Below are positions 1 through 50,476 of a stretch of 64,000 nucleotides of DNA, one piece after another. The stretch is taken from positions 1-64,000 of the forward strand of contig PS015550.1 of the NCBI GenBank assembly GCA_048213135.1. The letters are read 5' to 3'. Numbering within the stretch: the stretch's first letter is position 1; every line of letters begins with the position of its first letter. Below the pieces are notes generated by a model, which had not been told where the DNA came from, did no database searches, and was given only the letters and a program-made list of their open reading frames with translations. This DNA is from Reclinomonas americana ATCC 50394. Lineage: Eukaryota. A program made the translations under genes and the position numbers.

Positions 1-75
1 TCTCCCCTCCCTCACCCTCTCCCTCTCCCTCTCCCTTTGCCCCCTTGCCTCCCTCTCCCTCACTTCCCCTGCCAG

Positions 76-2046: not shown

Positions 2047-4303
2047 CTAGCGTTGCCGCAGTGACGGCAGTGGGTCACTGTCGTGTGTTGTCGTGGTCGT
2101 TGTCGTGGATGTCGTTGTCATTGTCATCACTGCGGGTTCGTGGACAGTGGGCGACACGGCGCCTTCGTGATGCGCACGTTTTCGTGGCACCCACTCGTTG
2201 AGTTCTTGCTGTGCGAGTCGCTTCCGTGTCGTCGCCTGTGCAGCAAATAAACATGGTGTCAAAGACTGTGTGTGCTCGACGAACAGTGCGAAGAAGCATA
2301 CCTCTTCCGAGGCAGTGGCAGGTAATGTGCGTGCGACAACTGTCGACTGCACGAGCGCGCTAAACTTGCCGCCCGTCGGTGGCGTGTCTGGCGCATCGTC
2401 CACGCGATACATGCGCACGTGTGGCGATCCGGTGGCGAAACGGATGCAACCACGCGTTCGCGGGCTGTGTTTCACCTGCTGCCGCCGCCTCTCGTCCTCG
2501 GTGACGCTCAGCACCACACCGCGGTTCATCTCCGTGTTGAATTCGACCAGCGGCTCGTTTTCTGATGGAGAGGGGGCGACACAGAAGTGAGCAGGGGCCA
2601 GGAGATGCTTGGAAAATAAAGCACACACCTCGTTCCATGCTGTCGAGAGCGTTGGGATCGACCGTGACAACTGGAGGAAGGCGACGAGTGAGACATGCGA
2701 CAAAAAAACAGAGCGTGGCAACAAATATTAACTGGTGCGGGGAGAGGTTGGCGACGGCAGTGGTGAGGTATGCGGCGACGCGGTNNNNNNNNNNNNNNNN
2801 NNNNNNNNNNNNNNNNNNNNNNNNNNNNNNNNNNNNNNNNNNNNNNNNNNNNNNNNNNNNNNNNNNNNNNNNNNNNNNNNNNNNNNNNNNNNNNNNNNNN
2901 NNNNNNNNNNNNNNNNNNNNNNNNNNNNNNNNNNNNNNNNNNNNNNNNNNNNNNNNNNNNNNNNNNNNNNNNNNNNNNNNNNNNNNNNNNNNNNNNNNNN
3001 NNNNNNNNNNNNNNNNNNNNNNNNNNNNNNNNNNNNNNNNNNNNNNNNNNNNNNNNNNNNNNNNNNNNNNNNNNNNNNNNNNNNNNNNNNNNNNNNNNNN
3101 NNNNNNNNNNNNNNNNNNNNNNNNNNNNNNNNNNNNNNNNNNNNNNNNNNNNNNNNNNNNNNNNNNNNNNNNNNNNNNNNNNNNNNNNNNNNNNNNNNNN
3201 NNNNNNNNNNNNNNNNNNNNNNNNNNNNNNNNNNNNNNNNNNNNNNNNNNNNNNNNNNNNNNNNNNNNNNNNNNNNNNNNNNNNNNNNNNNNNNNNNNNN
3301 NNNNNNNNNNNNNNNNNNNNNNNNNNNNNNNNNNNNNNNNNNNNNNNNNNNNNNNNNNNNNNNNNNNNNNNNNNNNNNNNNNNNNNNNNNNNNNNNNNNN
3401 NNNNNNNNNNNNNNNNNNNNNNNNNNNNNNNNNNNNNNNNNNNNNNNNNNNNNNNNNNNNNNNNNNNNNNNNNNNNNNNNNNNNNNNNNNNNNNNNNNNN
3501 NNNNNNNNNNNNNNNNNNNNNNNNNNNNNNNNNNNNNNNNNNNNNNNNNNNNNNNNNNNNCCGTTTGCTGCTGCTACCGAGCCCGCCCCGCGCCTGTTGA
3601 GCCCCAACGGGCAGTGGCGGCTGCCGCTTGGAATCGGCAACATACTGAAAAACGCGTGGCGAGGCGCCAAATCGAACGGTCGTCTTGTCTCGAAGAGGCA
3701 TTGGAACGTGTGCAGGCAGTGGCGAGCCCTCCACCAGCGTGCCGTGTGCTGCACACACACACCCACAGAGACGAGTGTCAGCGCAAAGGGGCGGAGGCAC
3801 TCAGTGGAGAGGAAGGGAGAGCCCACGCGCACCCGAGCCCAAATCCATGATATATGAGCCGTGCTGGGAGTGCATTATCACTGCGTGCAGGCGGGATACC
3901 GACATGTGGGCCTCGACGATCTGATGGAGAGGCGGAGGAGCAAGTGAGCACTCGCGTGTACATGCATGTGGCGTCCGCCGCGGCGCGCAACTTGCACAGC
4001 CTCCGTCAGACGACCAATCAGATACAACGGCCTTGCACTGATCTCATATACTATTGCCTCTGCGGCCTCCTCTGGCGCAGCAGAGGCAGGAGCTCCCGTG
4101 TGTGTGGCATGCAGCACAGGGCGACTGCGCGATGCAGCACTGGGCACTGTGGCAGGAAGAGAGACATGTATGTGATTCACTGTATCGTATTATGCAGTGC
4201 GCGTCAGCTCGGAAACGCAACGACAACACCATGCGGGTGGCACAAACGATGGCAAGCCCGTCACACTGTCGGTGACCACCTTGCCCGCCTGCTGCCTCGA
4301 CAT
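2047..4303 (-). CDS. FHA-domain protein, NIPP1/PPP1R8-like (interrupted by gap 2785-3560)
   Basis: Spliced N-terminus MSRQ..FVPPAW, FHA core YLIGR..HMSVSRLHAVI..MDLGSAHGTLV..VRFGASPRVF. After the gap LVEFNTEMNR resembles NIPP1 LTEFNTAHNK. Linkage across the gap is inferred. Confidence 0.72.
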
Positions 4304-4386: not shown

Positions 4387-7380
4387 ATGGGTCTTCCGGA
4401 GGAGATTACGAAGGTACTCAACGACCCCACCGGCGAGGCACTGAACGAGCGCGTCGAGTCGGTGTTTCGCGATGCCGACGTCGACCAGAGCGGCACGATT
4501 GATTACTCGGAGTTCAAGAAGGTGAGGAGGGGGACGATGAGCAGATGCATGTGCCTCTCCCTTTCGCCAATGTGCATGCATGTGCGTGTGTGCGTGTGTG
4601 TTCGTGTCTTTGCGCCATGTGCACATTCACATCACCAACCTGCACACGCACTCACACACTCACACTTTCACGCGTGCAGCTGTATCGCGGCCTGCACTCC
4701 ACACTGGAGCTTCCACGGCACTCGGTGTTGAGTGAGAAGCAGCTCAAGTCCAGTTGCGTGTGCTCTCTGTCACTCTCACTCGTCTCTCTCTGTGAGATTG
4801 ACGATTATTGCGCGCAGAGTTTGAGCAGCTGGATGCCGACAAGAGCGGGAGCATTGATGTGAATGAGTTCAGGTGAGAGAGAAGAGAGCGAGAGGAGGAG
4901 CAGAGATGATTCCGTGACTGACTGGTTGTTGTTGTCGCTTGTTTGCTGCTCTCCAGGCCATTGGTGAAGGAGGTGCGTGCACTGGACTTGTGCTGCCTGC
5001 TTCCCGGCCAGTCACACTGACTCTTGTTGCAGTTCCTGGTGGACATGCGTGACAAGTTCCAGCAGGTGGAGCACGAGATGAGTGACATGCAGGAGTGGTT
5101 TGCCGACAAGACAACGACTGTTGCGTGTCCGTCTTGTTGCATCGCGCACTCTCTCCCTCTGTCTCCGGAGGCCTCACGACGATTGGTGCGCAGCAGCAGA
5201 GGAGGCAGACGAGGTCGGCGGCCAAGTCGACCGACGAGCCGTCGTTGCCTCCGTCGCGGTTACCGGTGCGTCGCACTCGTCAGCAGGCCGAGGCGGTGTC
5301 AGCGTCGCAAACGTCGGAGGCCAGCGAGGATGCGTCCACCCCGCCGACTCGACAGACTCGGCGCAAATCAGCGGCGGCGGCGGCGGTGGAGGAGCCGGCA
5401 GCGCCGGCGCGCAGCACGCGACGCAAGTCAGCAGCAGCTTCCTTGTCGACTGCCAGTCAGGAGGCGGAGGAGGAGGAGGAGGAGGACGAGAAGCCGCAGT
5501 CGACCAGAAGCACTCGGCGCAAGTCAGTGGTCATTGTGTCGTCGTCGCAGGAGTCGGCGGCAGAAGATGCACCGACGAGCAGCAAGCGCGCTCGCGCTCG
5601 CCGTGCCTCGCAGGTGGCAGAGAACGCCGATGACGACGAGGGATCGGCGGCCGGCCCGCCATCGCAGGAGCCTGAGCCGGTGCCCGAGTCCACCAGCAAG
5701 CGCAGTCGCGGACGCCGCGTGTCTGTGGTCCCCGATGACGAATCCGTGGCGGCCTCGTCGTCGCAGGAACAGGAGGCTTCCGGCAAGCGGGGCAGTCGGG
5801 CGCGACGATCATCGGTGGCGGCAGCGGCCGTGTCGGAGGAAGCAACGCCAGCTGCGTCGTCACAGGAGGCGGAACCAAGCAGTGGCAAGAAGGCACGCGG
5901 CCGACGTGCTTCGGTGATTGCGGAGACGAATGACGCGGACATGGCGCCTTCGTCATCACAAGAGCAGGAGGAGGAGAAGGAGAAGAGCAGTCAACCTGCT
6001 CGTGGTCGTCGTGCGTCAGTCTCGGAGGCGGGAGAGAAGCAGACGCCTGCGAAACACAGCCCGTCAATCACACCAGCATTGCCGCCACCCGCTAGGATGG
6101 AGGTGGACGACGATCACGAGGAAGAGGAGGAGGAGGAGGAGGAGGAGGTAGTCGTGAGTCAAAAGAGTAGCAAGGCCCTGCGACGGGTGTCGGCACCACC
6201 ACTCAGGTCGAATGCTCCATCAACACCGGCGGCGGCGGCGGCAGCGGAGAAGGAGAGCAATGCACGTTCGCGACGCAAGTCGATGGCGGCACCGACCGTG
6301 GTGGCAGCGGAGCAGGCTGTGACATCGGCTCGTAAGAGCCGTGTGGCTGTCGATGACGATGTGGTGGTGTTCAGGAAGGCGCGATCGTCGGTGGCGGCGT
6401 CAGTACGAGAAGAGATCGAGGAGGACGATGAAGACGCGGAGACGGCGACTGATGTGGCGGAGACTGATGACAGCGACTCGGATGATGACGATGACGACGA
6501 TGATGATGATGAGGAGGAGGAGGGCGAGCAGTCGAATGACGTGCAGATTATTCGTGTTGCGCCTCGTGACCCGTCTGCCACTCGACCTCTGGTGCTGCCG
6601 ACCGACGGCGTGCTGCCACCTGCTCTGTTTGCACGACTGTCGCTGCGGAGGCAGACTCTGGCTCGTGAGACGGCGCTGATTCCCCCGACAACTGCCGACG
6701 GTGCCAGTGCGACGTTCACCAGCACCGTGACGCACTCGGCCACGCTGACAGGCAGCATCGATACCGACGCGGTGATGAAGAAGAGCGTGTTTGAGCCGGA
6801 CGCGTTGCGGAAGCAGCAGCAACGCGCTGCTCGTGCCGAGAAGGAGAAGAGCCAGAAGACCAAGCACTTTCCCGGTCGACTGGTGCCCAAGGCCAACGAG
6901 CAGCCCAAGGCGGTACGTTCACACTACAACATCATCGGCACAGCTCTTTCCATTCACTGCAGACTGCTGAACTCATTTCCATGCACACACACACAGGAGC
7001 GCAAAGCGCGCTGGGAGGACTTCGAGCCGCACCCGATGACACCCGAGCTGCAGCGTGATCTGCGGCTCATCGCCATGCGCCAGTTCCTCTCCCCGAATCG
7101 CTTCTACAAGAAGACCGAGTGGAAGGTCCGTAAGTTGCCGAAGCGGGTGCAGCTGGGCGAGATTGTGGCCACGCCGCGGAATGTGCTGGGCGAAGGCGGC
7201 GGCGAGCGACGGCGCGGACGCAAGCGTACCATTCTGGAGGAGCTCGTCGGCGACGACTCCACCCGCCGCTACACCAAGCGTCGCTACGTGGAGATCCAGC
7301 GCGAGCGCAGTGCCATTGGCACCAAGCGCGCCTCCCGTCGACCAGCCTCGCGGAAACTGAGCAAGGGGGGCAAGAAATGA
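4387..7380 (+). CDS. EF-hand pair + long basic/acidic low-complexity linker + Fcf2 (DNTTIP2-like) pre-rRNA processing domain
   Basis: EF loops DVDQSGTIDYSE and DADKSGSIDVNE. Intron 5120-5193 joins in phase 0 to the 761-aa ORF. C-terminal MTPELQRDLRLIAMRQFLSPNRFYKK..LPKRVQLGEIV..RTILEELV..YTKRRYVEIQ matches the Fcf2 pattern. Confidence 0.75.
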
Positions 7381-8209
7381 AATGCATCACAATCCTCCGC
7401 CTTGACTGCCACCGACTTGAAACGAACACTCCACTGTTCCTGCGACTGCGCTGCTGCTGCTGCTGCTGTGGGTGACCATCGTCACGTTATGACGTGTCCT
7501 CCCGCCCGCCAGTCCTCAAATCGTCCACGCTCAATTGCGGCGGAGGCAGTGGTGACAATGGAGTGGACGAGTGGGCAGAGGAGGCGGAGAGCAGGCGCTG
7601 ACGTCGACGCAGGCGAATGCGCTCGGCTTCTTGTAGCAGAGGGTCTACCGTGACTGGCGTACGCGACGAGCGAGAAGACGCCACATGTGCGTCGAGACTG
7701 CTGTGCTCTCCTCCGTTCATGAGGAAGGGGGGAGACGGACTGACGTCGTGCGTCTCGTTGTCGGCATTGCTTCCCGCGCTACTCTCTGCATGCGAGTGCA
7801 GCAGTGTTCAGCGCGCGTGTGTGTGCGCAGTCTGAGGCGACTTTTTTGCTGAGAAGAATAGCCACTGTGTACTTGCGTGATGCAACGCTCGCCTGCTCCA
7901 CTCTTGTAGGGATTGACGTGTTGCGACATGCTGTGACTTCACATCCATGTCGCCTGACAGTTGACTTTTGTTGATATCGGTCTGCAAGTGCGAAGTGTGC
8001 TGCTCCAGTCGCTGCAGTCACTGCTGGTGGTGAGTGATGGTGCCTATTTCAAGTGCAGGCGCTGGTGGGTAGAAGGTCGACATCGATCAGACACCATTTC
8101 CGACAAATGACAGGACTGTTTATTCCGTCGATTATACCACTTTTTCGAACTCGACATACGAGCAGAGACAACCCCCGCCCCACTTTTGGTTTTACACTAC
8201 ACTACTTCC

Positions 8210-11200
8210 ATGACAGACTTTCGCGAGAAGCTTTTTGAGGAGTTCCTCAACCGGCACATGGCGCCGGAGCTGCGGTGAGGTCCCAATTGAAGTCAACAGT
8301 GTGTCGACAAAAGTGACTCATTTGGTTTGATCTTCGGACAGCGACGTGATTCACGGCGGCGCACTGGACCATCTCATGCACGAGGTGTTTGAGGACCTGC
8401 AGCACCGCACTATCTGGGTCGAGCACGATGAGAGCATGCTTGTGCGACATTTCATGACACCCAAGGTTTGTACATGTCGAAAAAAACAGATAATGCATGG
8501 ACACTTTGGGCGAATGCAAACCCCTTCCTTTTTCTTCGTTGTTCACACAGATTGACAACGCTCGTGAGACAGCACTCTTCCGCTCCTCGGGACTGGCCGA
8601 GTATCTGCAAGCGGAACCTGGTCACACGCGCAAGGCGCCTGAGCGATCATTCCTCACTTTGATTAAGGACTTTAACAAGCATCGAGTGGAGCGCATCCTC
8701 ACAGCCATGCTGGACAACGAGGAGTTGCATGCCACATGCTGCACCTTTCTCTGTGTCTCCTCACGCACTCACGAGTTCTCCTTGCCGCGCGCGCATGCAG
8801 GATTGTCAACTGGGACTACTCGTTCGGCCCGTATGCCGGTTTGTTCGTCGCCTATTTTTTTTTTTGCTGTCGTTCTCCAACTCACGACTGCCTTGCTCCT
8901 CTGCAGGTGCATTTACCGATGAGATGAACAGTCGCCTGCGAGACCTTCGTGACGCGGAGGAGATGCAGGCGTACATTGGGCAGAACCCGACCACCGCCAT
9001 TGACATGTTCCGTGACGCGTGGGATCGCCTGCGCTTGCAGGAGACGGACGAGTTGCGTAATGCAACGACACGATTAGCAGCAGCTACAGTGCTCACCCTT
9101 CTCGCCCCACAGCATGCGTTTCGACGAGGCGCACGCTCGCGCGTCGTGGACGCGCAAGTACCGGACCACGTGCTGCGTGGAGCGACTGCCCTCCGAGTAC
9201 TCTTCCATGGTGCGCTTCTTCTCGTTCTCTTGGTTTCCACCCCTCTGATCATGAACTTACTCGGGGAGATGACGACACAGCGCCTGGTCGGAGCTCTGCG
9301 TGCTGCCGTCGCGCCGCGTTTGGTGCCAGTCGAGCGAGTGGTGGTGACGACGGGTGCACGTACGCAGCAGACCAACGTGCAGCCGCGCGTTTTCATGACT
9401 ATCCGTCCCGTTGACGACGACGAGGACAGCGTGGATCGCGCCGAGGAGGAGCTGTGCGAGCTTGCGCACGAGATCTCCACCTCGTGGACGATTTTCGAGG
9501 GCCAGCAGCGGTACGCCTTCCTCTCAATCCTGCTTTCACACTGTACCCTCCTTCTTCTCATCGTTCTCCACGCGCAGGCTGCTGAAGGTCACCATGAACC
9601 TGCCCGACATGTTCACGTGGGTGGGCGAGTACATGCAAGAGGTCCGTCGTGCACTGGCCGCACAGCAGCCACGTGCGCGTGCGCGAACGGCGGCTCGAAC
9701 GGTGGTCGCCGGCAGCAGTGGCCAGAGTGGTGCATCCGCCTCGGCTCCTGCAGCCACCATGCCGGCCAGTGCCGCGCCTTCCGATCGCACCGCTCGCGTT
9801 CCAGCCGTCGCAGCTGCGGTGCTGCCGGTGTCGCTGGACGACCACAGCCCGATGGTGTTCACCTTTGGACCGGCCCAGGAGCACGAGTCGAGTGGCTCGC
9901 TGTCGCTTTCGGACGCGGTCTCGGACGATGCGCAGCCTTCGGCCGCTGATCACGATCGTGCTCTCACAGACACGCTGTCGCCGATCGTGAAGCAGCTGCT
10001 CGACGCCAACATGGCGAAGCTGCAGAGGGCGCCGAAGACCGTATTGTGTGGTGGGCGTCTGGAGGTGTGCGGCACTGGCCACAAGAAGAAGGACCGTGAG
10101 TTTGTCCTTGGCCAGGGCAGCTACGGCTCGGTGTACTTGGGCTACTGGCAGCCGGGTCTGCGCGTGGAGACCAAGGTGCCGGTGGCCGTGAAGCTCATCC
10201 CGAAGGACTGCGGCATGTCCCTTAAGCACGTCGATGAGGAGATCCGGCAGAGCCAGGCGGTGCCGCGTGGCCGCTCGGTGGAGATCTACGCCTCATTCGG
10301 CGCCGACGACGAGCAGCTGGTGGAGCTGTGGGACGACTGCCACGTGATTGTGCAGAAGCTGTGCGCCATCAACTTGGACACGCTGATCACCGAGCACACG
10401 GCGAAGATTGGTCTCACGGCGCGCCGAGCTCTCATGGCTGAGGTCTTGGACGCCGTCACCGCCCTCCATTCCCTGGAGCCGGCGGTTGCCCACCGTGACA
10501 TCAAGCCCAACGTTGCGTAACAGCACGATGTGACTCGCTCATTTCTCTGTTCACGAACATGATAGCTAACGATGGTGTACCTCGTTGCGATGTGCAGAAC
10601 ATCCTGGTCGACCTGCAGCTGAACATGTACGTGCACGACAATGAGCTGCTGAGCACGTCGCTTCACTTATACTCATCCTCTTGTTTTTCACGCTGCAGCA
10701 AGCTGTGTGATTTTGGCATGGCACGAACGGTGGCCGGGCACGATCGCTCCACGATGCACACCATGTGGCAAGCTGGCCAGTCGGTGTTCCAGGCGCCCGA
10801 GGACATCGAGGGCGATCATCGTCGAGCCACGTGGTCGGTGCAGAAGGAGTCGGACGTGTTCAGCCTCGGTGCCGTCCTCTTCTTCATCTGGACCGGCGGT
10901 CTGCATCCGCTGGCGTGGACAGAGGAGCGCGATGGCACACTGCAGTGCGTACCAATTTTTCCGTACGCAGACGCAGAACCTCTCCCCGTTCCTCACTTCA
11001 CTCTCTCTCTCTCTCTCTCGCACACACAGGGGTCAGCCACCGAGCTTCCTCGCCGATCGAGCGCAGTTTACGCGCCGCATGTACGCCTTCCAGAACGATT
11101 CAGACACATTGCGCGTCGCTCACCGGTATTGGGAGAATGCGCTGAACAACGTGCCACTGTTCATGCTGCTGCGAGAGATGCTGCGACCCAAGCCGGTCGA

Positions 11201-12947
11201 TCGGTGACTACTACCTCACGCCCGCCTCCTCTCGCGCCACTTCTCGCTGACTTTTTGCCACGCAGCCTCACCACGACGCAGATCAAGCAGCATCCGTTCT
11301 TCTTGGACGCCTCCGGCCGGCGCATGATGATTCAGCGCCTCGAGGAGAGCGGCAAGACGTTTGACAGCAAGGGTTTGTCGTGGCTTTCGACTCCATCGTG
11401 AGCCCTCTTCTTCTTCTTCTCATTTTCCCACTCACCCGTGATGTATGCAGCACGACGCATGCTGGAGGGGCTGCAGCCGAGCATTTCGGTGGGACGCATC
11501 GATCCGCAGCACTGGCGAGACACCCTGTGCAGCGCACTGCGAGTGCACGATTCCGATCGTTCCCGAGTGCTGACATCGTTGCGGTGCGACACCATGACGG
11601 CGAACGCGTGGGGCATGGTAAGTGGGGCGAGCGTGCACAGCGATCCCGCGCACAGCGGCACTCACCGATTCGAGTTGTGCAGGTCAAGTTCATGCGCAAC
11701 GTCATGACACACGCCAGTGATCCCGACTTTTCGCACGACTTGCTGGATCGCTTCTGCCACTTTGTCATGCCGAGTGGCGACGTGCGGCACGTGGCCGATG
11801 TGGAGCAGTTCTTCCACGAGCACCCGCTGTTTTCGTGGATCCTGCCGGAGGTGTGGAGCACCACGCAGGTGGATCACATTCGAAGTGTGCGCAACATGCT
11901 GGAGAACATTCCCAACTTTGACGCCATCTTCCGCGGCGACGCCGAGTCGGTGATGCGAGCCGTGGAGCAATTCCTGGCCAAGTCCATGAAGCGCACTGTG
12001 GACGGTCGCAGCACGCCAGAGTTGGAGGTGCCCGAGGTAAGGAACTCACACGTCTCGCGTTGTACGGGATCCCGAAGCTCACCTTGTGCGAAATGCAGTC
12101 TCGGCCTCGCGATCGCACACCGCCGGCGTCCCCACCGCTGCCTCCTTCGCGACCGCCGGCTTCAGCGCCAGCCGCAGTGCCGCTGCCTGCGGTGCAACTG
12201 CTGACCCCAGCCGCTGTCACTGCTGCTGCCAGCGCTTCGACTGCCTCACCGACAAGCGGTTCCTCGCGACGCCGCAATCGCCAGAATCGGCAGGCTGCCG
12301 CTGCGGCTGCCGCCGCCGCTTCAGCTGCTGACTCCACCGCTGACGCTGGCTCCGCTTCCTCTTCCGGCTCACGATCGCCCACACGCACTCCTCAAGCAGG
12401 TGGTCGAGCTCCGCCCGAGTACCGAGCTGTGGCTGCGGTGAGTTGCATTGTGCGCGGCAGTGGTGCGTAGTGTTTCTGACCACAACTCACACCTGTCGGT
12501 GCAGGCGAGTGCCGAGTGGAAGGCCGCACCCGCTCCGTCGCGCTCCTCGTCCGTCAAGCTGCCGCCGGACTTTGCTGGTGCGTATGTAGCGCGATGAATG
12601 TCGGTCTTGAGACACGCGCCTTCTCACTTCTTGATCGGCGCGCAGAGATCCCTGCACGCAACGAGCTCCACGCTTCGTTCACCAAGGACAACGGCGGCCC
12701 GTATCCTGGCCGTGTTCTCAACTGCAACGCCAAGCTGGGCACCGCCCACATTGAGTGGGAGGGTCAGGGCAGCAGCAAGCCGCTGGTGTACATGTACAAG
12801 ACTTCGTTGCAGGAGCCGGCGCGCTTTGCCGACATGATCAAGCCCGGTGCGCGTGTGACCATGTGGATCAAGAACAACCCGAAGATGATGCCGGGCAAGC
12901 CGATCCAGCCGTACGCCTACGCTGTCATTCTGCGCACGCAGCAGTAG
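8210..12947 (+). CDS. Ire1/RNase L-type Ser/Thr kinase-KEN endoribonuclease with putative RRM (N-terminal) and cold-shock/OB domain (C-terminal)
   Basis: GQGSYG, VAVK, HRDIKPNN, DFG, APE, DVFSLGAVLFFIWTGGLHP, IKQHPFF; KEN motif VKFMRNVMTH; all exons phase-compatible from ATG 8210 to TAG 12947. Confidence 0.82.
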
Positions 12948-13015: not shown

Positions 13016-14886
13016 ATGCGAAGGCCGCGCTCGTCGCCTGTTGCGACTGTGCTCCTCCTCTTCCTCCTCTGCTTCTGTTTCCTCCTTTCACCCTCGCCCT
13101 CCAGCGCCGACGCACTTGGTGACACTCGCGACTGCGATGCATCGTTTCCGTGGTCGCTCTTCACGCGCGCCAGCTGGCACCTGCTGCGTGGCGAGTCTCT
13201 GTCGTCGTCCGCCTCTCACCGCCCACCACACCATGGTGCAATGGCGCGCATCTCTGCTCCCTTTCGATTCCGTCGTCAGTGCCTCGCTGCATTCGAGTCG
13301 TGGTTGTCGCTCTCCGAGGTGTACATGACGCTGCAGTCGCCACGCAGCGGGCCCACACAGGTGCTGCATGCCGATGCCCCACTGGCGGCCGCACCACCTG
13401 GCGTCATTCGACGACACCCTGCATTCGATCGGGTGAGGAGGCGTGTGATCTTCAGAGACAAGTGATCGACTCACTCACTTGCACACCGCTGCGCACACAG
13501 GTGTCGGTGCTGTACGACGCTCCAGTGCGATTACCGACGAGTGCACGCGGCAGCAATGTCGGTCCACCAATGCTCATGCGATCGCCGACGCTCATGGAGC
13601 ACCAGCTCACCGACCCGTACCCGTCGTACTCGATCGTGGTGGAGAATGCGGTGTGTGTTCTCGCCCTCTTCCTCTGCACGAGCTGCGCGTGACCGTGACG
13701 TGCCATGTGCAGCTCGTCACTCCAGACGATGCGGTGTTCACCAAGGAGCACGTGTTGCTGGCACGTTCGTGTCTGCCGCGCGTGCTCGAGGCGCCCCGCA
13801 CGTGGGAGGCCACTGATGAGGTGCTGTTGGCCGACGCCGTGCTGCCGCTGCTGCAGATTTTCTCCGACGCACTGTTCCACATCATCATCGAGTCCCTCAC
13901 GCGCCTCATGCAAGTGTGGGACGAGGTGTACCCGGATCGCAGCATTGTGGTGCTCACACGACGGAGCACGTACGGGTCGCAGCTGACTCTGGATCTGTTT
14001 GAGGCTGTCGGCATTTCCGGCGATCGAGTTGCGCATGTGTGGTGCGGAATTTTTTGCACTCGGGATCCTCCATTCCTGACTGCCCACAGATCGTCCTCGA
14101 TCCGCCGCCGGTCATGGCACGCAAAGTGTACTTTGTGGCGGGTACCTACTGCACGCAGTCGCAGCCGTCGCTGTTGCACGAGATTGCTCGTGTCTTCAAC
14201 GTGCTGCACGGCGACATGGTGCGCGAGGTCATGCGAGAATACTGGAACTGTTGCGTCCAACGTTGCTGGTGCTGGTCAGCATGTGTATTCGCTGCTGAAT
14301 CGCACACGTGCAGCACGGCGCACTGTGCAACTGCGGACGCCGACGCCGAGCGGGCGTCCTCTGCGGCGTGTGGTGGTGATTGAGCGCAAGGGCGAGCGTG
14401 AGTTGGTGCAACACGACGAGGTGAGTGCTGTGCTTCTTTTCTTCATGCCTCCATCCTCCGTTGTGGCAAAGCTCACGTGGTGGCACACACTCATAGATCA
14501 TCGCCATGATGCAACGCGATTTCCCGCACTTTGAGATGGTGTTGTTGTCGCGCAACGCCACCGCCATGCAGGGAATCGTCGAGGTGGCCATGGCCGACAT
14601 TCTGTTTGGCGCGCACGGTGCGGGGTTCTCCTATCGCGCCTTTATCCGAGGTCGTCCGTGCGCCCACGTCGAAGTCATGTACCACGCCGGCTTCGCGTGG
14701 GGCATGACGTGGAATCCCGGTCTGGTGTTGATGGCCGCCGCGCAGGGCTGCAAGACGTTTGTGCACTTTGACGAAAAGGGCACGCAGATCAGCGCGTTGG
14801 ATGCACCAGTCGCCGATATCCGCTGGCTTCTGCAGCAGGCCGACGACTGGTTGGCCACGCAGGATGTGCGCAGGCCTTTCTCGTAG
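13016..14886 (+). CDS. Glycosyltransferase family 61-like, copy 1 (N-terminal signal/anchor)
   Basis: Hydrophobic N-terminus; LFHIIIESLTRL; IERKGERELV; ADILFGAHGAGF motif. Confidence 0.78.
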
Positions 14887-15072
14887 ACTAAAAGGAGACT
14901 GAGAGCGACGATTGCTGTCGATTTCCTCCTTCTCAGCCTGCTGCTGTTTGCGGCTACATGCGCAGAGATGGCCAGTGTCATGTCCCGGGCAGGCGACTGT
15001 GTTTTTGAGTCGCCAAGTGAAGAACAAAGGCCAGCGCGTGACTGACGCACAATTTCGTTTCTTTTTCCGACG

Positions 15073-17436
15073 ATGCACACGAGGAGAGCGCTTCTTGTCG
15101 CCCTTCTCGCCGCGGTGGTGTGTGTGACCTCATTTGTTTCTCGGTCTCCCCATCTCTCACTCTGCTGTGCTGCGTCAGGTGGTGTGCACATGTATGCTGG
15201 CATCTTCCGCCTCGATCGTCGGTGAGTATGCGTGTGTGCATTCTGCGTGCGCACACACGCACACGCTCATCATCGTCTGTCCGCAGATCAGAGCAGTGGA
15301 GACGCAGCTCTCGGCGTCTCTGCATCGCATCTCGACATCACTGCGGTGCGTTGTCTCTCGTCGGAGAGGAACTGCATGCATGTGAGACTCACGCAAACTC
15401 TGTTGCAGGTCCACGCATCGACGTCGCCTGAGGTGTTGCTGCCACACACCATCTGCCTCGTGTTGGATACAGTTTATCTCTCACACACCTCTCTTGCGCA
15501 GCACGAGGCCTGCCGACGCAACTTCCCGTGGTCACTCTTCTCGCCCGCCAGCTGGATCATGATGCGAGGCAGCAAGGCAGTCGACGACTCCTCGGGCCAG
15601 CCGCGACCACTGCACGTCGGTGCGTCGGCGCTGGTGATTCCGCCGTTCCAGATCCGCGCGGAATGTGCGGCCGCCTTCGAGTCGTGGCTGGCGCTGTCGC
15701 CCACGCTGCTGACGCTTGCTCGGGAGCCGCCACTGAAGCTGCGAGCCGAGGAACCCTTCGCTGTCATGTCGACGGCCAACAATCCGCGCTACGTGGTGCG
15801 TCGACACCCGCAGTTCGACATGGTAAGCACCCGATCTCTTCGCGTCTTTTCCTCTTTTGCGTCGCCTGAGTGTCTGTGCATGCATGATCAGCATCCTGTG
15901 CAACACGAACTGCCGGTGCGCCTGCCACACTTGCAGCAGCAGGATATTGGTCCGCCCATGATCATGCGCCCGGGCAACCTGATGGAGCACCGGCGGTCGC
16001 TGTACGTGCCGTGGGGCTCGATGGTGGTGGAGAATGCTGTTGCGTGTGTTGAAGATCTTCGGGTTATCGCCTTCGACTGCTCACTTGTGTACCTCGAGCG
16101 CAGCTCATCTCCCCACACGATGTTGTCTTCACCGACGATGCTGCCATGGAGGCGCGCTCATGTCGTACCGCGGACGCCAACCCGCAGCCAATGCCGATCG
16201 AGTGGTCGGTGAACCAGGCCGCGCTGCTGTTGGACGCGGCGCTGCCACTCATGCAGCTCTTCTCCCATCGCCTCTATCACATCATTGTCGAGTCGCTGCC
16301 GAGACTCATTGCGGTGCGTGGCGCGAAAAGTACAAGTTGGAAGCGACGTGAGAGACTGCTCACCTCGCACGCACACCTGCAGGTGTGGGACGAGGTGTAT
16401 GCCGATCGCAGCATCTTCATCTTGGCCAGTGCCGTCGAGCACGGCGACCAGGTGGTGGTCGACACGTTTGCCGCGGTCGGCATTCCACGCGAGCGAGTTG
16501 CGTGCCGTGTGGTTTACATAGCTGCACGCGCTGCTGTCACTTCGGTCGCTGGTCTCACGACGGCGCAGTTGATACTGAGTCCACCACCGGTCATGGCGCG
16601 CAAGGTGTACCTGGTGTCTGGTGTGTTTTGCACGCACCCGCATGCGACCGTGATACAAGGCATTCGTCGCGTGTTTGAGACTCTGCATGGTGACATGGTG
16701 CGAGCGGCTCTGCGGCAGTTGTGGGAGCGTTGCGTGGGCAGCCGCGCCTTGTGCTCTTGCAGTCTGTCACCCTCACACCTGCGCAGCGAATCGCCGACTG
16801 TGGGTTCGTGACGGGCCGCTGACGCGTCGTCGTGCCGTGCGCCGCATGGCCGTGTTCCAGCGCACGAAAACTCGTGCCCTGGTCGAGCACAACGAGGTGC
16901 GCACGACCGCATGTAGTCGATCGCTGTGTTTCGTTGCTGACGACGGCAGACACGCAGATTATGCACATGCTGCGGACCGAATTCCCCCACTTCGAGGTGC
17001 AAGTGATCCCCGACAACGCCACCGTCGCGCAGGGCATTCTGGCGGTGGCCAACGCTCATGTTTTGTTCGGGCCGCACGGTGCCGGCTTTGCGTTTGCGGC
17101 GTTTGGCATTGGCCGGCCGTGCGCTCACGTGGAGGTCACGTACGGTGGCAACGACAGAGGCATGTCGTGGAATCCGTGCCAGTTGGACGTCACGGCAGCA
17201 CATGTTGCGTGAAGAGGAGAAAGAAGGAGTGGGAAAGCGAGTGTCACCGCTCACCGCCACAGCAGGGATGCAAACAATTCTTCCTTTTTGACGAGTTCTC
17301 CAGCCAAATGCACCCGACAATCTCGGCACCGGTGAACGACGTGCGGTGGATCATGCAGCAGGTGGACGAGTGGCTCGAGTCGCAAATGCCTCTAACAGTA
17401 CCCGACGACGACGACGGAGACGGAGTATTTGGTTGA
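15073..17436 (+). CDS. Glycosyltransferase family 61-like, copy 2
   Basis: Paralog of copy 1 (FPWSLF, LYHIIVESLPRL, VLFGPHGAGF); start exons approximate. Confidence 0.76.
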
Positions 17437-17474
17437 GTGAAATCGTCCTGCTCCGCTACTACAACGCGACACGA

Positions 17475-19404
17475 ATGCCGAGCGCGCCTCGCCTCCTTTT
17501 CCGCCTCGCATTCCTCTGCTGCCTCCTCCTCCTCTCCCACACTCCACTCTCCTCCTCCGCCACACACGACAACGACGCCTGCGAAGACAACTTTCCGTGG
17601 TCACTCTTCGCCCCACGCTCATGGAGAATGGTGGTCGGCAGCGACGAGCTGCTCGACGACAGCATGCGTCCTTTACACAAGGGCGCCATGGCACACATCA
17701 GCGCACCCTTCCACCCACGTCTGTCGCGTTGCCGATCGCCCTGGTTGACAATCACTCGTGAGGCAATGAGTCTGCGAGAACCGCGTGTCGGGCCCGCCCA
17801 GGTGCTGCAAGAGTATGAGCCGTATGATATGATGGTGTCGACGGGGAATCCGCGGTGTACTCTGCGTCGACATCCGCGTTTTGATCGAGTTGAGTGAGGG
17901 CATGGAGATGATGATGATTGTCATTAGGCAGCTCAATTCCGTTCTCTTTCTGCAGCAACGTGTGCAGTACGCGATGCCTGTGCGACCGCCGCATGTGCGA
18001 CCGGAGGGAGTTGGCTCGCCGTTTGATCCGCGTCCGGGTGACATGATGGAGCACCGCCTGTCGAACCACATGCCATCGCACTCGATTGTTGTCGAGAATG
18101 CTGTTGCGTGCGTGCATGTCTTTGTGTGCAATGCATCTGATGCTCACTGGGAAAGAGAGAGCAGGTGGTGGCGCACAGTGGATTGGTGTTCACGCCCGAG
18201 TACATGCTGGCGCCGATCTCCTGCGAGTCCTTCAACCCCGATTTCCCGATGCAGTGGGAGACCACCACGAGTGCCGTGCTGGTGGATGCCGTGTTGCCGT
18301 TGCTGCAGGCGTTCTCCGGTGGCCTGTATCACACGGTGGGGGAGTCTCTGCCGCGGCTCATGCAGGTGTGGGACGAGGTGTATCCCGATCGGAGCATCGT
18401 GATTGCCACCACCAGCAGCGACTATGGAGCGCAAATGATGTATGATTTGTACGCGGCCGTGGGCATTCCGGCGGAGAGGGTGAGTGCGCGCCCTGTATGA
18501 GTGCAGAGAGAGTGTGTATATGTGGGCAAGCGAATAACCGTGTATGTGTGTGCATGTGCAGATCATCCTCGATCCGCCGGCGATCCTGGCCAAGAAAGTC
18601 TATTACGTTGGTGGTGTGTACTGCACCGATGCACAACGGTCGCTGGTGCACGAGATGAATCGTGTCTTTGACTTGCTGCACGGCGACATGGTGCGATCGG
18701 CTCTGCGCGAGCTGTGGCAACGTTGCGCGTGCATGCGCATTCATCTTTTATTGTCTTGTGTATCAACCACCACTTCGCTCGCTACAGCCAAGCGCTCTGT
18801 GCGGTTGCGCACCGATACCCCGTCTGGACGTGCTCTCCGACGCGTGGTGGTCATCAGCCGGGAAGGCCGGCGAGTCTTGGCTCGTGAGAGCGAGGTGAGT
18901 CTCTGTTGTCCTTTTTCTGAAATCATCTGTTCAGGTCCGTTGACGATTGCGGCGTGCAGGTCGTGGAGGCCATGCGACGCGAGTTTCCACATTTCGACGT
19001 GCATGTGCTACCGGCCAGCACATCAGTCGCCGCTGGCATCCTTGCAGTGCGTCACGCGCACATTCTGTTCGGCGCACACGGAGCTGGCTTTGCGTACGCT
19101 GCTTTCGGTGCCACTCGCCCGTGTGCCCACGTGGAGATCACGTACGGCCGTCGCCTCCCCTACTTTATGAAGTGGAACCCGTGCCAGATGATCCTGTCGG
19201 CGCCACACGTTCGTCGCCATCGCTTTTGCGGAGAAAATCCGACGCAGTCGCCACTGACTTATTGGTCTGCAGGGTTGCAAGCCGTTCTTTTTGTTCGACG
19301 ACGACGCGGAACAGCATGCACCAGCACTCAAGGCCCCATGGGACGACATTCGATGGCTCTTGCAACAGGCAGACGAGTGGCTGGACTCGCAGCGATTGCC
19401 GTGA
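17475..19404 (+). CDS. Glycosyltransferase family 61-like, copy 3
   Basis: Signal peptide, FPWSLF, LYHTVGESLPRL, ILFGAHGAGF; shared intron positions with copies 1 and 2. Confidence 0.78.
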
Positions 19405-19590
19405 AAGTAAGTCACGTGTACGTGATCGATCGGCCTGTCGAAGTCCGCAGCGACGAAAGCGCGAAAAAGCCGCCTGTCGCTGGCCAGCGGAGCTCACCTC
19501 CATGCGCCATCACGTCGAGCCACACGTCCGCTCGAGAGAATGAAGACGTTCATCGCGACTTGTCCTTTGTCATCTTCGTCAAATTCAATC

Positions 19591-22356
19591 ATGAGTGCCG
19601 AGGGGGAGGCCAGTGGCTCATCGCCCACCATGTCAGACATCACATCGCTCATGTCGCAACGCCAGTGGAAGCGCGCCGACGAGCAACTCACGGCCATGCT
19701 CACCGATTCCTCTGCTCCTGCAGTTGCTTCCACACAGATGTTTTTTCGCGCGCAAAATCACACGCACTCTCTCAACTGAGGATTGCTACAGACTCAACGC
19801 GCGGCCGCATTGCTTGCACGGAGTGTGACGCGAGTGCGACAGACAGAGGCAGTCGACTTGGAGTTCTCACAGAGCGCAGAGGTGATTGAGCGGCGAACGG
19901 AGTTGTTGAATCAAGTGAGTGTGCGTGTTCTCTCCGGGAGCCCTGATTCACGCACTCATTCGGGCGGTCGTCTTGCAAGGCTCTGGCGGATGTGGAAGCT
20001 GCGCGAGAGGCCGACAGCGGCATGTCGCCAGTGGTCTATCTGATGCACAAGGGCGACGCGCTGGTGCATCGCAAGTCGGTGCCTGGATCAATCCGCGAAG
20101 GTCACTCGCCCCGAGCAAGCAAGAAGCTGTGCTGTATGTGCTCACGGCCTCTCTCCGTGCAGGACTCACGTGCCTGCTGCAGGCCGCTGAGCAGGAGCCA
20201 GAGAACGCCGAGTGCCTGATTCGTTTGGGTCACGCACACTTGAGCTGTGCGGACTTGGCCAGCGCCGAGGCAGCGTGGCGCAAGGCCGTGGGCCTGGCGC
20301 CCGACTCGGTGGAGGCCGTGCACTGGCTGGCGGTGGCGTTGGACTTGCTGGGCCGAGGCCACGAGTCGGTGTCGATGTTCATTGTTGAGTTGTCGCGCGG
20401 GAAGGCAATGAGATCCCACAGACTCATCGTCACTCGTGCACACAGCGTGCAGTCAAGTTGGAGGCCAACGACGCCGAGATCTACATTCACCGCGGCATGG
20501 CGATGGAGCGGCTGAAGAGAGTTTCGTCCTTGCGTGCATCTCGTACGATGATGACCTGGGAGGCTGACTGGGGCCGGCACACAGTTCCACGAAGCGTTCA
20601 CCGATTACGAGCAAGCCGTGGCACTCGAGCCCAACAACCCACGCGCTCTGCGGCTGCGTGGTCAGCTCCACCTGTCCATGGGCAAGCCGGTGCTGGCCGA
20701 GCGTGATCTGACCGCGTCGGTGAGATCACCTTTCTTTGCACACTCAGTGTGTCTGCCACTTGTCTCACTTGTGGAGTGCGCAGATCACGTTGTGCCCGGA
20801 GCAAGACTTTTTGGTGTACGCGTTGCGTGCGCGCTCCTTTGATGCCATTTGCTCCGTGACGCAGTCGGGTCGGGAAACCGAGGCACCCGTGGACCCGGCC
20901 GCCCTCGGCACGATGGCGCAGCGTTCCGTTGCCGATCTCACGCACGTGTTGAGCAAGGTACGCATCGTGAGGTCGAACCGAGAGACTATGTCGTTGATGC
21001 TGACCTGCCGTACTCAGGATCCGAAAAACCTCGATGCGCTGCGTGGCCGTGCAGCCATTCGGGCCAACTATTTGCAGGAGATCGACGCGGCGCTGCAGGT
21101 GTGTGTGACTCGTATCTCGCGCGTGCGCACACACTGTCGTTGGTCTTGACTCTTGAATGCACCAGGACTACGAGCGTGTGATCGAGCTGGACCCCGATCC
21201 AATGCCAACGGTTTTGCTCTCCTACGCCAGGCTAATGTGCCTCCACTGCCCCGACAACAAGTACGCAGCACTCGATGCGTTCTCGCGCAGCATCCATGCG
21301 ATGGAGCGTGAGGTGATTCTTTGTCATGTGCTACTGCGACTGCATGTCTCGTTGCTCACATTGGCGCCATATCAAGTCCGACCGCGGTTACTGGTCGGCC
21401 GAGTTGTGTGACGCGCTGTACGATCAAGCGTGGATCGAGCGTGAGTTGGGCCTGTACGAGGAGGCCGTGCGCGACTACTCGCGGATTGGGCACATTGAGA
21501 AGATCCAGCCCGACGTGTTCCCCCGCTGGCTGATGGAGCGCGCGGCCGATCGCATTGTGCTCAACGATCAGTTGCGTGTTGGTGGCATGCACAGTTTTGT
21601 GATTCGTCATCCTCACTCTCGTCTTTCTCTGGCATGCAGTGCGCTGGCGATGCGCGATCTGCTGGCCGTCCTGCACCACTCACCCGACAGCACCGACGCA
21701 CAAGAGACCATGCAGGAACTGGTGTCGCGCGGGTGCACTGCGGCCGATGCCGCCACCGAGGATCTGGATCCGGTGTCGCCTCCGGGCCTGCTGTTCTCCA
21801 TTCGCCGTCTGAAGGCGCGAGGCAGCGAGATGCTGCGCGAGGAGGGCGTGCCACTGGAGCACTGTGTGGCGCAGTACGAGCGCACAGTGGGTTTCTTCGA
21901 GGAGCTGGAGACGCACAAGCGCAAGATGACCGAGGAGGAGAGGGAAGAGGAACGCAGATTGCGCATCTCCATCCACAACAACATTGCGCTGTGCCAGTTG
22001 CGCGGCGGCCGTCCGGACGCGGCTCGTGCCCTGTGCGCGCAGGTGTTGGAGTTGGATCCCAGCAACATCAAGGCCCGCATGCATCTCTTCATGGTGGCCA
22101 CGGCGCAGCACAACGACGTGGAGGCGCTGAAGGCGCTGGAGAGCGTCGAGGATCAGCTGCCCGAAGAATTCCGCAGGTGCGTTCTTGTGCACGCTGTTTC
22201 TCAACACCTACTGCCTACTCATGTTGTATACTGCCAAACAGCCGTCTGGACGAGCTCCGACGACGAGTGGGTGACGTGCCAGCTGAAGTCGCCGCCGCCG
22301 CCGCCGTTGTGGAGGCACCGCCACCGGCCGAGGTGTCAGCCGAACCGGCACCATAG
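19591..22356 (+). CDS. Tetratricopeptide-repeat protein
   Basis: Many TPR-type helices (AECLIRLGHAHL..AEAAWRKAVGLAP; DYEQAVALEPNNPRALRLRG; NNIALCQLR..QVLELDPSNIKA). Confidence 0.8.
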
Positions 22357-22490
22357 ATGTAGACGGAGGGGTACTGGCCTGAGGAGTGGATGTGAGTGAA
22401 CAAGAGATTGACGAACCTCAAAGGGTGAACGAACTTCGAGCTGGGAGTTGTCCCTGCGTCCGTGTAATTCCGTCGTTTGGTGTCGGTGCC

Positions 22491-25400
22491 ATGGGTCAGA
22501 AGCAGTCTCGCAGTGGTGGTGCTGGCGGCCTGTACGCCGGCGATGGCTCCGCGCGAGTGGTCGACCTGCCGTGCACCGCCTTTGGCAGCTCACAACCTGT
22601 GCTGCTCGTCGGTCCCAACATGAATGACAATGCGATCATTGTGGTGCAGACGTTGCAGATTCGTTGCGTAGGGCGTTGCAAGAGAAGAGTGGGAGCAGTG
22701 CAGAGGGTGCGGGTGCATGCATGTGTCGCGGAATAACTGTTGTCTCTTATGTGAGAGAGAGAGGCGCACTTGCCTTGCATGGTGTTCTTGCGAGTGTGTA
22801 CAAGAGCGTGTGTCTGTCTCTCCCCCGCCGTCCGCCTGTGTGTGCGTGTGTGTGAGAGAGGGGAAGAGCGAGGACATGGCAATGACCGACCCCCCTTTCC
22901 ACTCTCACAGAGAAGCGCAAGACCGACGCGCAGCTCAAGTGGAAGACCACACTGACGCGCGAGGCGCTGTGTGCGACCATCTGCGAGGACAAGTACGTGG
23001 CGGTGGGATTTGGCGACGGAAGTGTCACAGTCTTTGAGGTTTGCATGCCTTCCGCATGCTGCTGTTGATGTGGAAGTGACACTGAGGTGCGCGCTCTGTG
23101 TGACAGCTGGAGGGTGGCAAGGAGATTGCCGTGCTGGCGGCTGCAGTGGCGTCTGGAGCACGTGCCCCGGCCATCACTGCCGTGTGTGCCGTGGACAAGT
23201 CGCGCATTCTCACTGGTGAGCGCGTCTCTCAAACGAAGCTCGTTTTTTGTGATTGATGTTTGATGCTGTGTGTCAGGTGGCACTGACGGACTTGTGCGTC
23301 TGTGGTCGGTGGATGAGAGCGCTCTGCTGCGACAATTCGCAGATACGGCGGCGATCTTGGCGGATACGGATCCCGCGGCGCCGGTCCCATCGCCCTCGTC
23401 GTCGTCTTCGTTGCCGCCGAGTGTGTCGGCTCTGAGCGTCTCTCGGGCGTACTTTACGGGTCCGCCGCAGATCTTTGTGTCGGCCGGCTACGACAATGGC
23501 AATGTGACGCAGTTTGATTTGGAGACGGGCGCGCAGGCAAGTCGCTGCCGCTCTGCCGACGAGGCGTGCACTCTCTTACTTATTGCCATGCAGACCGTGT
23601 CTCTGGGTGCTGGAGCCTCATCCGGACCGCGAGTCATCAGCTTGGCCACATACACCAGTGCCCGCTTGCTGTTGTTTTGCACCTCGGACGGCCTGCTGCA
23701 TGGGTGGAACCTCGAGGGCTCCCAGATCACGCAGAACATTGCGTATGCGGCGCTCAGTCTCGTGTACGTCACTACGGTCGACGGCGTGCTGGCGGCCGAC
23801 CGCGACGGCAATGTGTCGCTGATTCGGCGATCGGGTGATGGCCAGTCGCTGCATCTGGAGCGCGTGTGGAAGGTGGCCAGCAACATTGCCCTCACGCGAC
23901 TGGTGTACTCGGAGGCGTACGACGCGTGCTTCATTGCCGGTGGTGACATGTCGGTGCGCTTCGCCGTCAAGATGTTTGAGCTGGCCGGGCTCAACATTGA
24001 CGCGCTGCGGGGTGAGTTTTGCACAACTCGTCATTCCACCAACTAAATTCCAAGCTCTCACTGTGCATCCTCCCACGTGCAGTGTCTGCGGCCAAGGCCA
24101 GCACGTTGAGCGCTGATGAAGGTCGGTGATGGCGCACGCGAGAGAGATGCACTGTTGTTTGCACAAGAGACTGACGAGCAATGAGTTGCAGTTCACGATC
24201 TGGTGCATCAGCTGATCGCGCTCGGTTTGGAGCACGAGGTGGACGAGGAGGATGCCCTTACCGGTAGCATTCTGGGTGTGTGTGCATACTCCGTGCGCAC
24301 ATGTTGGTGTTTCCTCTGCCTCCTGACGTGTGAGTGCAGGCGCCATGTCGGAGGTGGAAGCCAAGGAGCTGTCCATGGGCAAAGTGTGCGACATTTTGGA
24401 CGAGCGCGCCAGCATGATTCCATCGCAGGCACCGCTTGCCGCCATCAGCGACTCGATTCGCGACGGTGTGCAACAGCTGAATGCAGAGCTCGGTCACTCG
24501 CTGCAACAGCACGTGGACGAGGCGGTGGCGGCGCGCTCCCGCATTGCCAAGCGCTACCATGCTCACCTCATTCCGACCTACGGCAAGGCGCAGCTGGAGT
24601 CGGCGCACAACTATCTCATGCAGGAGATGCTTGAGCGCCATCAACGCGAACTCGAGGAGTTGTCGGTAAGTGCTTCATTTTCTTATTTGCGGATGCTGTC
24701 GGAAGCTCACCCATGCATCTCGACAGGCTCACTGCAAGGAGGAGCTGCGACGCTTCGAAAGCGAGATTCCTGTGGCGCACGAGCAGGCGGCTGGCGAAAT
24801 GGATGCAGTGGTGCAGAATGCGGAGAAGCGGCGCCACCAGCTCGAGTCGCAGACTTGCACTCGACTCTTGTCGCTCCTCGACGAACGGCTATCGTACCCC
24901 AAGTTCAGCGCCCGCTACTTGATCGGTTGGTGTTCTGGCTGCGTGGAGGGTTGCTGTGTTTTTTTTTGTGTTGACGCCTTGTGTGTGCAGTGTGTCCCAT
25001 TGATTTCAAGCGACCGGAACTCGACGTGTACTGTGGCCTCGACACCGAGCAGTCGGAGCAGGTAACTGTCAGAATATACCCGGGCGAGCACTACCCACTC
25101 GAGCCCGTATTGCGCAACCACAGCGGCGTGCTGCAAGTGCGCGATGTGGTGTACCATTCGGGCAAGACGTACGTCATCCTCGAGCACGTGCGGGTGCGTC
25201 ACATCCCTTTTATTCATTGTCACTCGTGCGTAATGTGTGTTGCTGATGAGTGGTGACGTGCAGGAAACACTGGCGCAGTTCGTGGAGCGCATGACCGGTC
25301 CCTCCAGCAGCGACCGCCTCGACGAGGAGGTGGTGGCACGCATCACATTCTCAGTGTTGCGTCATTAATATTGCTCGTACTCTCGACTCGGACACGTCAC

Positions 25401-41953: not shown

Positions 41954-41990
<37 letters not shown>

Positions 41991-50123: not shown

Positions 50124-50476
50124 AAATAGATATGCAGCAGTGTACACATAGACGAATGAGATNNNNNNNNNNNNNNNNNNNNNNNNNNNNNNNNNNNNNN
50201 NNNNNNNNNNNNNNNNNNNNNNNNNNNNNNNNNNNNNNNNNNNNNNNNNNNNNNNNNNNNNNNNNNNNNNNNNNNNNNNNNNNNNNNNNNNNNNNNNNNN
50301 NNNNNNNNNNNNNNNNNNNNNNNNNNNNNNNNNNNNNNNNNNNNNNNNNNNNNNNNNNNNNNNNNNNNNNNNNNNNNNNNNNNNNNNNNNNNNNNNNNNN
50401 NNNNNNNNNNNAGGCGCCTGCCTTTTCTTGTCTCGTCAGTGACCAACGCACACGTGTGGTGTGTCTGTGTGTGCAG

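Follow-up and report, generated by a model that had tools for sequence, protein, structure and literature searches.

We have analysed a predicted gene at positions 8210-12947 of the forward strand in a stretch of 64,000 nucleotides (nt) from Reclinomonas americana ATCC 50394 (contig PS015550.1, assembly GCA_048213135.1; the whole stretch is hereafter called the window). Our results support a single soluble product, a multi-domain protein of about 1212 residues in which a protein kinase is followed by a helical tail bearing an R-N-x3-H motif. We consider that this protein may be a soluble and divergent kinase-KEN/HEPN ribonuclease (RNase) of the kind represented by IRE1 and RNase L, in which the tail would have a KEN fold and RNase activity, and we give this reading about an even chance.

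Layout of the predicted protein

The predicted gene (+) has 17 exons with 3639 coding nt, corresponding to 1212 codons and a stop codon, and shows zero internal stops. The exons are located as follows.

Exons 1-6 (+): 8210-8274, 8342-8465, 8551-8723, 8801-8838, 8907-9051, 9113-9209
Exons 7-12 (+): 9269-9510, 9578-10511, 10598-10656, 10699-10944, 11030-11203, 11266-11372
Exons 13-17 (+): 11451-11617, 11683-12036, 12099-12437, 12505-12577, 12646-12947

The protein read from these exons is arranged as follows.

8210-9049 (+): N-terminal region, residues 1-181, without a hydrophobic N-terminus in the hydropathy profile
9150-9596 (+): region earlier described as RRM-like, residues 195-301; exons 6, 7 and the start of exon 8
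9657-9953 (+): linker 1, low-complexity and Ala/Ser/Pro-rich, residues 322-420; delimited by composition in 30-residue blocks
10092-11302 (+): protein kinase domain, residues 467-778; exons 8-12; Pfam Pkinase match and motifs
11291-11886 (+): candidate KEN/HEPN-like helical region, residues 775-925; exons 12-14
11887-12036 (+): further predicted helices, residues 926-975, up to the end of exon 14; from a low-confidence AlphaFold2 model
12099-12576 (+): linker 2, low-complexity and Ala/Ser/Pro/Arg-rich, residues 976-1112; an open frame in exons 15-16
12693-12947 (+): C-terminal domain of about 85 residues plus the stop codon, residues 1129-1212; cold-shock/OB candidate

An earlier description of this locus, made from the letters alone and hereafter called the sequence-only reading, had picked out a series of peptides, and all of them were recovered at their coordinates. 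In the kinase and its tail, these are DVFSLGAVLFFIWTGGLHP of subdomain IX at 10853-10909, HPFF at 11291-11302, and VKFMRNVMTH at 11683-11712. In the RRM-like region, they are TCCVERLPSEYS at 9168-9203, VERVVV at 9329-9346, RVFMTI at 9386-9403, and LLKVTM at 9579-9596, and in the C-terminal domain, GRVLNCNAKLGTAHI at 12708-12752, VYMYKTSL at 12786-12809, and IKPGARVTMWI at 12837-12869. These peptides are spread over three frames of the forward strand, and the splice model joins all of them in one frame. Linker 1 lies inside the single open exon 8; accordingly, the N-terminal module and the kinase fall within one uninterrupted exon. In terms of protein families, Pkinase was the sole Pfam family matched on any exon. 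The exons coding for residues 1-181 gave no Pfam or NCBIfam family above chance-level rows, and the NCBIfam and PADLOC scans returned nothing relevant.

The kinase domain

The kinase is intact, of the Ser/Thr type and very divergent. Pfam Pkinase (PF00069) matched the translation of exon 8 with an E-value of 2.5e-9 and 37.4 bits, where the curated cut-off is 31.7, and matched exon 10 alone with an E-value of 5.4e-7 and 29.7 bits. The set of catalytic motifs is complete, comprising the glycine-rich loop GQGSYG (residues 473-478; 10110-10127), VAVK (residues 497-500; 10182-10193), HRDIKPNN (residues 600-607; 10491-10600, split by an intron), DFG (residues 630-632; within 10706-10720), and APE (residues 658-660; within 10790-10804). 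The Pfam match and these motifs together bear out the claim of the sequence-only reading that the kinase is intact.

In searches against Protein Data Bank (PDB) sequences, exon 8 matched only the glycine-loop stretch of EGFR. Exon 10 matched 132 distinct sequences at E<=1, of which the first nine were bacterial PknB (5.7e-5 to 7.9e-5) and the next three were yeast IRE1 (0.0019-0.0022), ranking above every other eukaryotic kinase. When a 38-residue piece covering subdomain IX was used, 13 sequences were matched at E<=10, and the top three were again yeast IRE1, in an alignment that passes through the G-x-HP turn, with E-values of only 0.47-0.5. The subdomain IX had been described as Ire1-style; in this respect, DVFSLGAVLFFIWTGGLHP is present and yeast IRE1 ranks first, but the match at E 0.47-0.5 is not significant. 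The kinase may therefore lean toward IRE1, and we consider this ranking a hint and not a significant result. On the other hand, PknB, a Hanks-type bacterial kinase, ranks first in the PDB for the part from the activation segment to alpha-F (E 5.7e-5). Unlike PknB, the gene described here is a spliced eukaryotic gene, and the likeness is limited to generic kinase motifs over 66 residues.

The helical tail as a candidate KEN RNase

The kinase ends with HPFF at residues 775-778, and the tail begins directly after it without a linker. The tail contains R862-N863-x3-H867 (11695-11712), which is the sole RN...H of the protein and lies 84 residues past HPFF. According to PMC3149027, R1056 and N1057 of yeast Ire1 coordinate the scissile phosphate, and H1061 is the key general acid/base with Y1043 as its partner. 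The R-N-x3-H catalytic spacing claimed in the sequence-only reading was confirmed and equals that of R1056/N1057/H1061 in yeast Ire1. KEN is described in PMC3710099 as a circularly permuted HEPN domain with the signature Rx4-6H and a polar residue after R, and the R862-H867 motif conforms to this rule, with a polar residue following R. In an AlphaFold2 model of exon 14 alone, computed from the single sequence, seven helices were predicted and the model was all-helical up to residue 106 of 118, with a predicted local distance difference test (pLDDT) score of 46.7. The R-N-x3-H motif is located at the start of a predicted helix in this low-confidence model. Two further features of the tail seem to resemble IRE1 and RNase L, namely the hydrophobic and basic residues that immediately precede R-N and a W-R pair some 45-50 residues past HPFF, and the RNase L motif quoted in the sequence-only reading presumably resembles the context of R862-H867.

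Several results weigh against a KEN RNase. The KEN tests were run exon by exon, and the putative domain spans exons 12-14 in two frames, such that each query held a third to half of it. Within this scope, Pfam PF06479 (Ribonuc_2-5A) was not matched on 13 single-exon translations, exons 12-14 included, at E<=10, nor on eight longer single-frame translations at E<=1. The phmmer searches against the PDB gave one match at E<=10 for exon 14 alone, a picornavirus polyprotein, and five matches for exon 12 alone, with IRE1 and RNase L not among them, while exons 13 and 11 searched singly gave no match. A translation that runs in one frame through exons 10 and 12 did not score higher against yeast IRE1 (18.8 bits) than exon 10 by itself (21.6 bits). 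Among 1.84 billion representatives, exhaustive phmmer with exon 14 found 0 at E<=0.001; word-seeded searches against longer proteins with exon 14 and with the kinase part of exon 8 were blank; and the language-model search of exon 14 reached 0.75 at best, with an unrelated cluster. The confidence of the exon 14 model is low (pLDDT 46.7), and in a Foldseek search with it none of the 25 rows reached E<=0.001, with IRE1 and RNase L absent; the model is too poor to weigh on either side of the KEN question.

The kinase and the motif themselves supply further points on this side. The best PDB match of the kinase is bacterial PknB rather than IRE1, and endings of the HPFF type are frequent among kinases. 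A counterpart of the catalytic Tyr of Ire1 is absent; judged by equal spacing rather than by alignment (Y1043 is 13 residues before R1056), the corresponding position ahead of R862 is occupied by Thr, and residues 811-861 contain no Tyr. When the 197-residue tail (residues 779-975) was shuffled, R-N-x3-H appeared by chance in 4518 of 200,000 shuffles (2.3%), and at 60-110 residues past HPFF in 1200 of 200,000 (0.6%). The motif is thus uncommon by chance but not decisive, since a very large scan preceded the choice of this window.

Taken together, the KEN-like region proposed in the sequence-only reading retains the motif, its spacing, and its position after the kinase, but no KEN match was obtained by profile, sequence, language-model or fold tests on single exons. 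In wider searches, 80 pattern matches were found in metagenome contigs with exon 14 and 0 were confirmed, and the PF06479 family search gave no match in 14 control genomes, those named being prokaryotes.

The strongest alternative is that the protein is a lineage-specific orphan Ser/Thr kinase, in which an unrelated helical tail would have a regulatory or scaffolding role, the R-N-x3-H would have arisen by chance, and there would be no RNase activity. We regard this as a serious possibility, although not a probable one. It accords with the uniformly negative KEN tests, with PknB as the best PDB relative, and with the missing Ire1-type Tyr, and a chance rate of 0.6-2.3% per tail is not small when set against the number of kinases met in a genome-wide scan. 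However, those KEN tests covered only thirds of the putative domain. Moreover, yeast IRE1 ranks top among eukaryotic kinases for the C-lobe and first for subdomain IX, and the motif is found at the expected distance from the end of the kinase and at a predicted helix start.

Gene model and integrity of the locus

The 17-exon model is supported by the base composition and the codon usage of the locus. The GC content at third codon positions (GC3) in the model frame is 0.78 overall, and 15 of the 17 exons fall within 0.74-0.95. The total GC content is 0.63 in exons and 0.53 in introns. With a codon log-odds score trained on 821 codons out of confident stretches, exons 4, 5, 6, 7 and 16 were positive in the model frame (+10.4 for exon 16). 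The score of intron 5 was negative in every frame, those of introns 3 and 4 were negative in the frame entering each, and those of introns 6 and 7 were weakly positive in the entering frame (+4.7 and +3.2).

All 16 introns are of the GT...AG type and 42-86 nt long, and 15 of them end in CAG. Most introns carry a CTCAC or CTNAY element 15-30 nt 5' of the acceptor; counted by eye, about 9 of the 16 have CTCAC and the others have CTNAY, roughly 15-30 nt ahead of CAG, and the background rate of CTCAC in the window is 0.0024 per nt. The donors are varied and include GTGAG, GTAAG, GTTTG, GTTGC, and GTGCG. The uniformly short introns with a branch-like element may represent a lineage signature, which would be useful for gene finding in this genome. 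The intron at 9210-9268, which ends in GAG, is the weakest of the model, and an alternative CAG acceptor at 9280, equally possible on reading the sequence, would remove four residues. The 42-nt intron at 10657-10698 keeps the reading frame whether it is spliced or retained. A tblastn search with the model found no second copy of the gene within the window.

The least certain coding part is linker 2 (exons 15-16), in which exon 15 is Ala/Ser/Pro-rich and has a codon log-odds score of -41.1 over 113 codons. Because this score is negative, the link between the kinase and the C-terminal domain rests on the splice signals. In this regard, the locus could be split, in which case the kinase gene would end soon after exon 14 and the C-terminal domain would belong to a small protein of its own; retention of intron 14 would bring in a stop 55 codons later, and there would be no C-terminal nucleic-acid-binding fusion. 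This arrangement, which is independent of the KEN question, is unlikely in our view. What speaks for it is that exon 15, low in complexity and poor in codon score, is the sole link, and that an ATG near 12594, inside the modelled intron 16 and in the frame of exon 17, would open 12594-12947 as a protein of about 117 residues. However, the three modelled introns that flank linker 2 are the sole places in 11900-12700 with a complete intron signal (GT donor, CTCAC-type branch-like motif, and CAG), and with them one frame is open to the stop at 12945. In addition, frame 0 is open across exon 15 for 182 codons, and two separate genes would leave no intergenic space.

Proposed mechanism and the flanking modules

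If the tail is a KEN RNase, the protein could work as follows. The helical extension of about 200 residues, of which about 150 are KEN-like, would be a highly diverged KEN (HEPN-superfamily) endoribonuclease. By analogy with IRE1 and RNase L, nucleotide binding and autophosphorylation of the kinase would favour dimers or higher oligomers, and within these, two KEN-like domains would be brought close to each other. RNA would then be cleaved in a metal-independent manner, with the scissile phosphate held by R862 and N863 and with H867 taking part in proton transfer. The N-terminal region (about 320 residues) and the C-terminal domain (about 85 residues) each hang on a low-complexity linker; they would substitute for the luminal sensor found in IRE1 and the ankyrin/2-5A sensor found in RNase L, giving the activating input or the targeting of the substrate.

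The sequence-only reading had gone further and tentatively assigned both flanking parts to nucleic-acid-binding folds. For the N-terminal part, the RRM assignment found no support. At E<=10, exons 6, 7 and 8, which are pieces of a three-exon region, were without a match to RRM (PF00076); no RRM was among the matches in the PDB search of exon 7; and an aromatic motif of the RNP1 type was not seen by eye in this region.

The C-terminal domain lies wholly inside exon 17, and the domain tests on this exon are therefore fair. Pfam CSD (PF00313) was not matched on exon 17 at E<=10, the PDB phmmer search gave one match, which was unrelated and not a CSD, and no relatives were found among proteins of similar length. 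The single-sequence AlphaFold2 model of exon 17 had a pLDDT of 36.8, too low to be informative. A hidden Markov model (HMM) built from 70 distinct bacterial cold-shock proteins gave exon 17 a score of -1.4 bits, a level that 530 of 2000 shuffles reached as well. In the language-model search, on the other hand, the ten best named clusters all carry PF00313, and the top one reached 0.89 with 165 shared features and a recognition of 2349; since the threshold of this search is 0.9, the value of 0.89 is a lead only. The cold-shock reading thus keeps the language-model lead, whereas Pfam, PDB phmmer and the cold-shock HMM were negative, and the domain may be of the cold-shock type only as a weak suggestion.

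Building on both modules, a third route of activation can be imagined, in which a cytosolic core of active kinase and KEN would be combined with an N-terminal ferredoxin-like module and a C-terminal cold-shock-like barrel, and RNA binding, in place of ER stress or 2-5A, would drive dimerisation and cleavage. We consider this route distinctly improbable, and the step from the flanking modules to RNA-driven dimerisation is purely inferential.

Solubility and absence of the known sensor parts

The sequence-only reading had described a protein without signal peptide, transmembrane helix, luminal domain or ankyrin repeats, and our analysis agrees on all four. In hydropathy terms, the highest 19-residue Kyte-Doolittle window is 1.57 and falls within the kinase C-lobe, the N-terminus is hydrophilic, and there is neither a signal peptide nor a transmembrane helix. 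No Ank family was matched on any exon (Pfam, E<=10). A luminal or transmembrane exon was looked for upstream, where the neighbouring gene is the following.

5086-7380 (+): open frame of 764 codons with its stop codon at 7378-7380; Fcf2 pre-rRNA processing domain (PF08698) at its end, E 4.1e-21, 75.5 bits

The luminal domain of IRE1 comprises several hundred residues. Because the Fcf2 gene ends at 7380 and leaves about 830 nt between the two genes, there is too little space upstream for such a domain, and this intergenic stretch held no usable hydrophobic coding frame. The Fcf2 frame is acidic and Ser/Ala-rich, and it is apparently intronless over 5086-7380, in contrast to the kinase gene with its 17 exons. 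Directly past the Fcf2 stop, at 7447-7467, lies a (GCT)n trinucleotide repeat that mimics a hydrophobic poly-Leu segment in one frame.

Two hydrophobic frames could suggest that the model missed the signal peptide, luminal domain and transmembrane helix of a canonical membrane-bound IRE1, namely a continuous frame over 8907-9510 with a transmembrane-like stretch, obtained when introns 5 and 6 are left unspliced, and a frame at 7433-7489; but both were rejected, the first because the codon log-odds over 9113-9209 favours the spliced frame (+17.1 vs -3.9) and intron 5 is negative in all frames, and the second because this (GCT)n repeat, just past the Fcf2 stop, contains stops and lacks an in-frame ATG. 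With the hydrophilic N-terminus and the lack of upstream space added, this reading is close to refuted, and we hold it to be very improbable.

Comparison with known kinase-RNases

On the one hand, the candidate kinase-KEN protein resembles IRE1 (Ire1p, ERN1) in the direct transition from an active-looking kinase to a helical tail in which R-N-x3-H has the yeast spacing, and no eukaryotic kinase in the PDB ranks above yeast IRE1 as a match to its C-lobe. On the other hand, it differs from IRE1 in having no signal peptide, luminal domain, transmembrane helix or counterpart of the catalytic Tyr, and in giving no Pfam KEN match with single-exon pieces. It also has about 470 unrelated residues ahead of the kinase and about 240 extra residues beyond the tail.

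RNase L consists of ankyrin repeats, a pseudokinase and KEN, and depends on 2-5A. The protein described here is similar to RNase L in being soluble, in the order of a kinase fold and a KEN candidate, and in having a module in the sensor position N-terminal of the kinase. Unlike in RNase L, ankyrin repeats were not detected, and the catalytic motifs are all kept in the kinase. RNase L was never matched in the PDB searches with single-exon queries.

Fusions of kinase-KEN with other partners, namely ankyrin, CCCH, UBI and BRCT, are on record in PMC3710099. The CCCH, UBI and BRCT fusions share with our protein, where the core is a candidate, a kinase-KEN core that lacks both the membrane part of IRE1 and the ankyrin part of RNase L, plus lineage-specific accessory regions, although the accessory regions here differ and no sequence kinship to those fusions was detected. 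A full-text literature search found no work pairing 'KEN domain' with 'cold shock domain', and none of the papers listed for 'Ribonuc_2-5A' deals with such an architecture, judging by titles and abstracts. Accordingly, if the tail is KEN, the protein would be a variation on the recorded kinase-KEN fusions and not a new kind of enzyme.

Among kinase-coupled KEN RNases, activation is well characterised, to our knowledge, for two routes only. In one, unfolded proteins or lipid stress act via the luminal and transmembrane parts of IRE1, and in the other, 2-5A acts via the ankyrin repeats of RNase L. If our kinase-KEN reading is true, the same catalytic core would occur here with an active-looking kinase, no membrane anchor and entirely different sensor regions, which would widen the range of inputs known for this enzyme type and add a case for gauging the frequency with which eukaryotes have re-wired the kinase-KEN core. 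Should the tail prove not to be KEN, the protein would be one more orphan kinase of a poorly sampled lineage, with little general interest.

Relatives and window context

With exon queries, no relatives of the gene were detectable in the searched collections. Consequently, no alignment was available, and both AlphaFold2 models were single-sequence and poor (pLDDT 46.7 and 36.8). The other long open frames scanned in the window were also mostly without a Pfam family (11 of 14 and 5 of 6, in two sets). A gene without relatives and neighbours without Pfam families point to a poorly sampled lineage, and it is because of this that the alignment-dependent methods failed. Neither the Rfam nor the tRNA scan gave any match in the window.

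Downstream of the gene, the following features were noted over 13449-24046 (+).

18921-19889 (+): weak Glyco_transf_61 match, E 6.8e-4, under the cut-off
21317-22399 (+): TPR protein
23264-24046 (+): weak beta-propeller matches

The window as a whole is GC-rich (about 0.58-0.63). In 500-nt windows, blocks with a GC content of 0.00-0.32 were found at about 2500-3500, 26500-27500, 41000-42000, 50000-50500, and 51000-51500, with 0.000 at 3001-3500, and all six frames are open across them. These blocks are most likely runs of N, representing scaffold gaps in a draft assembly.

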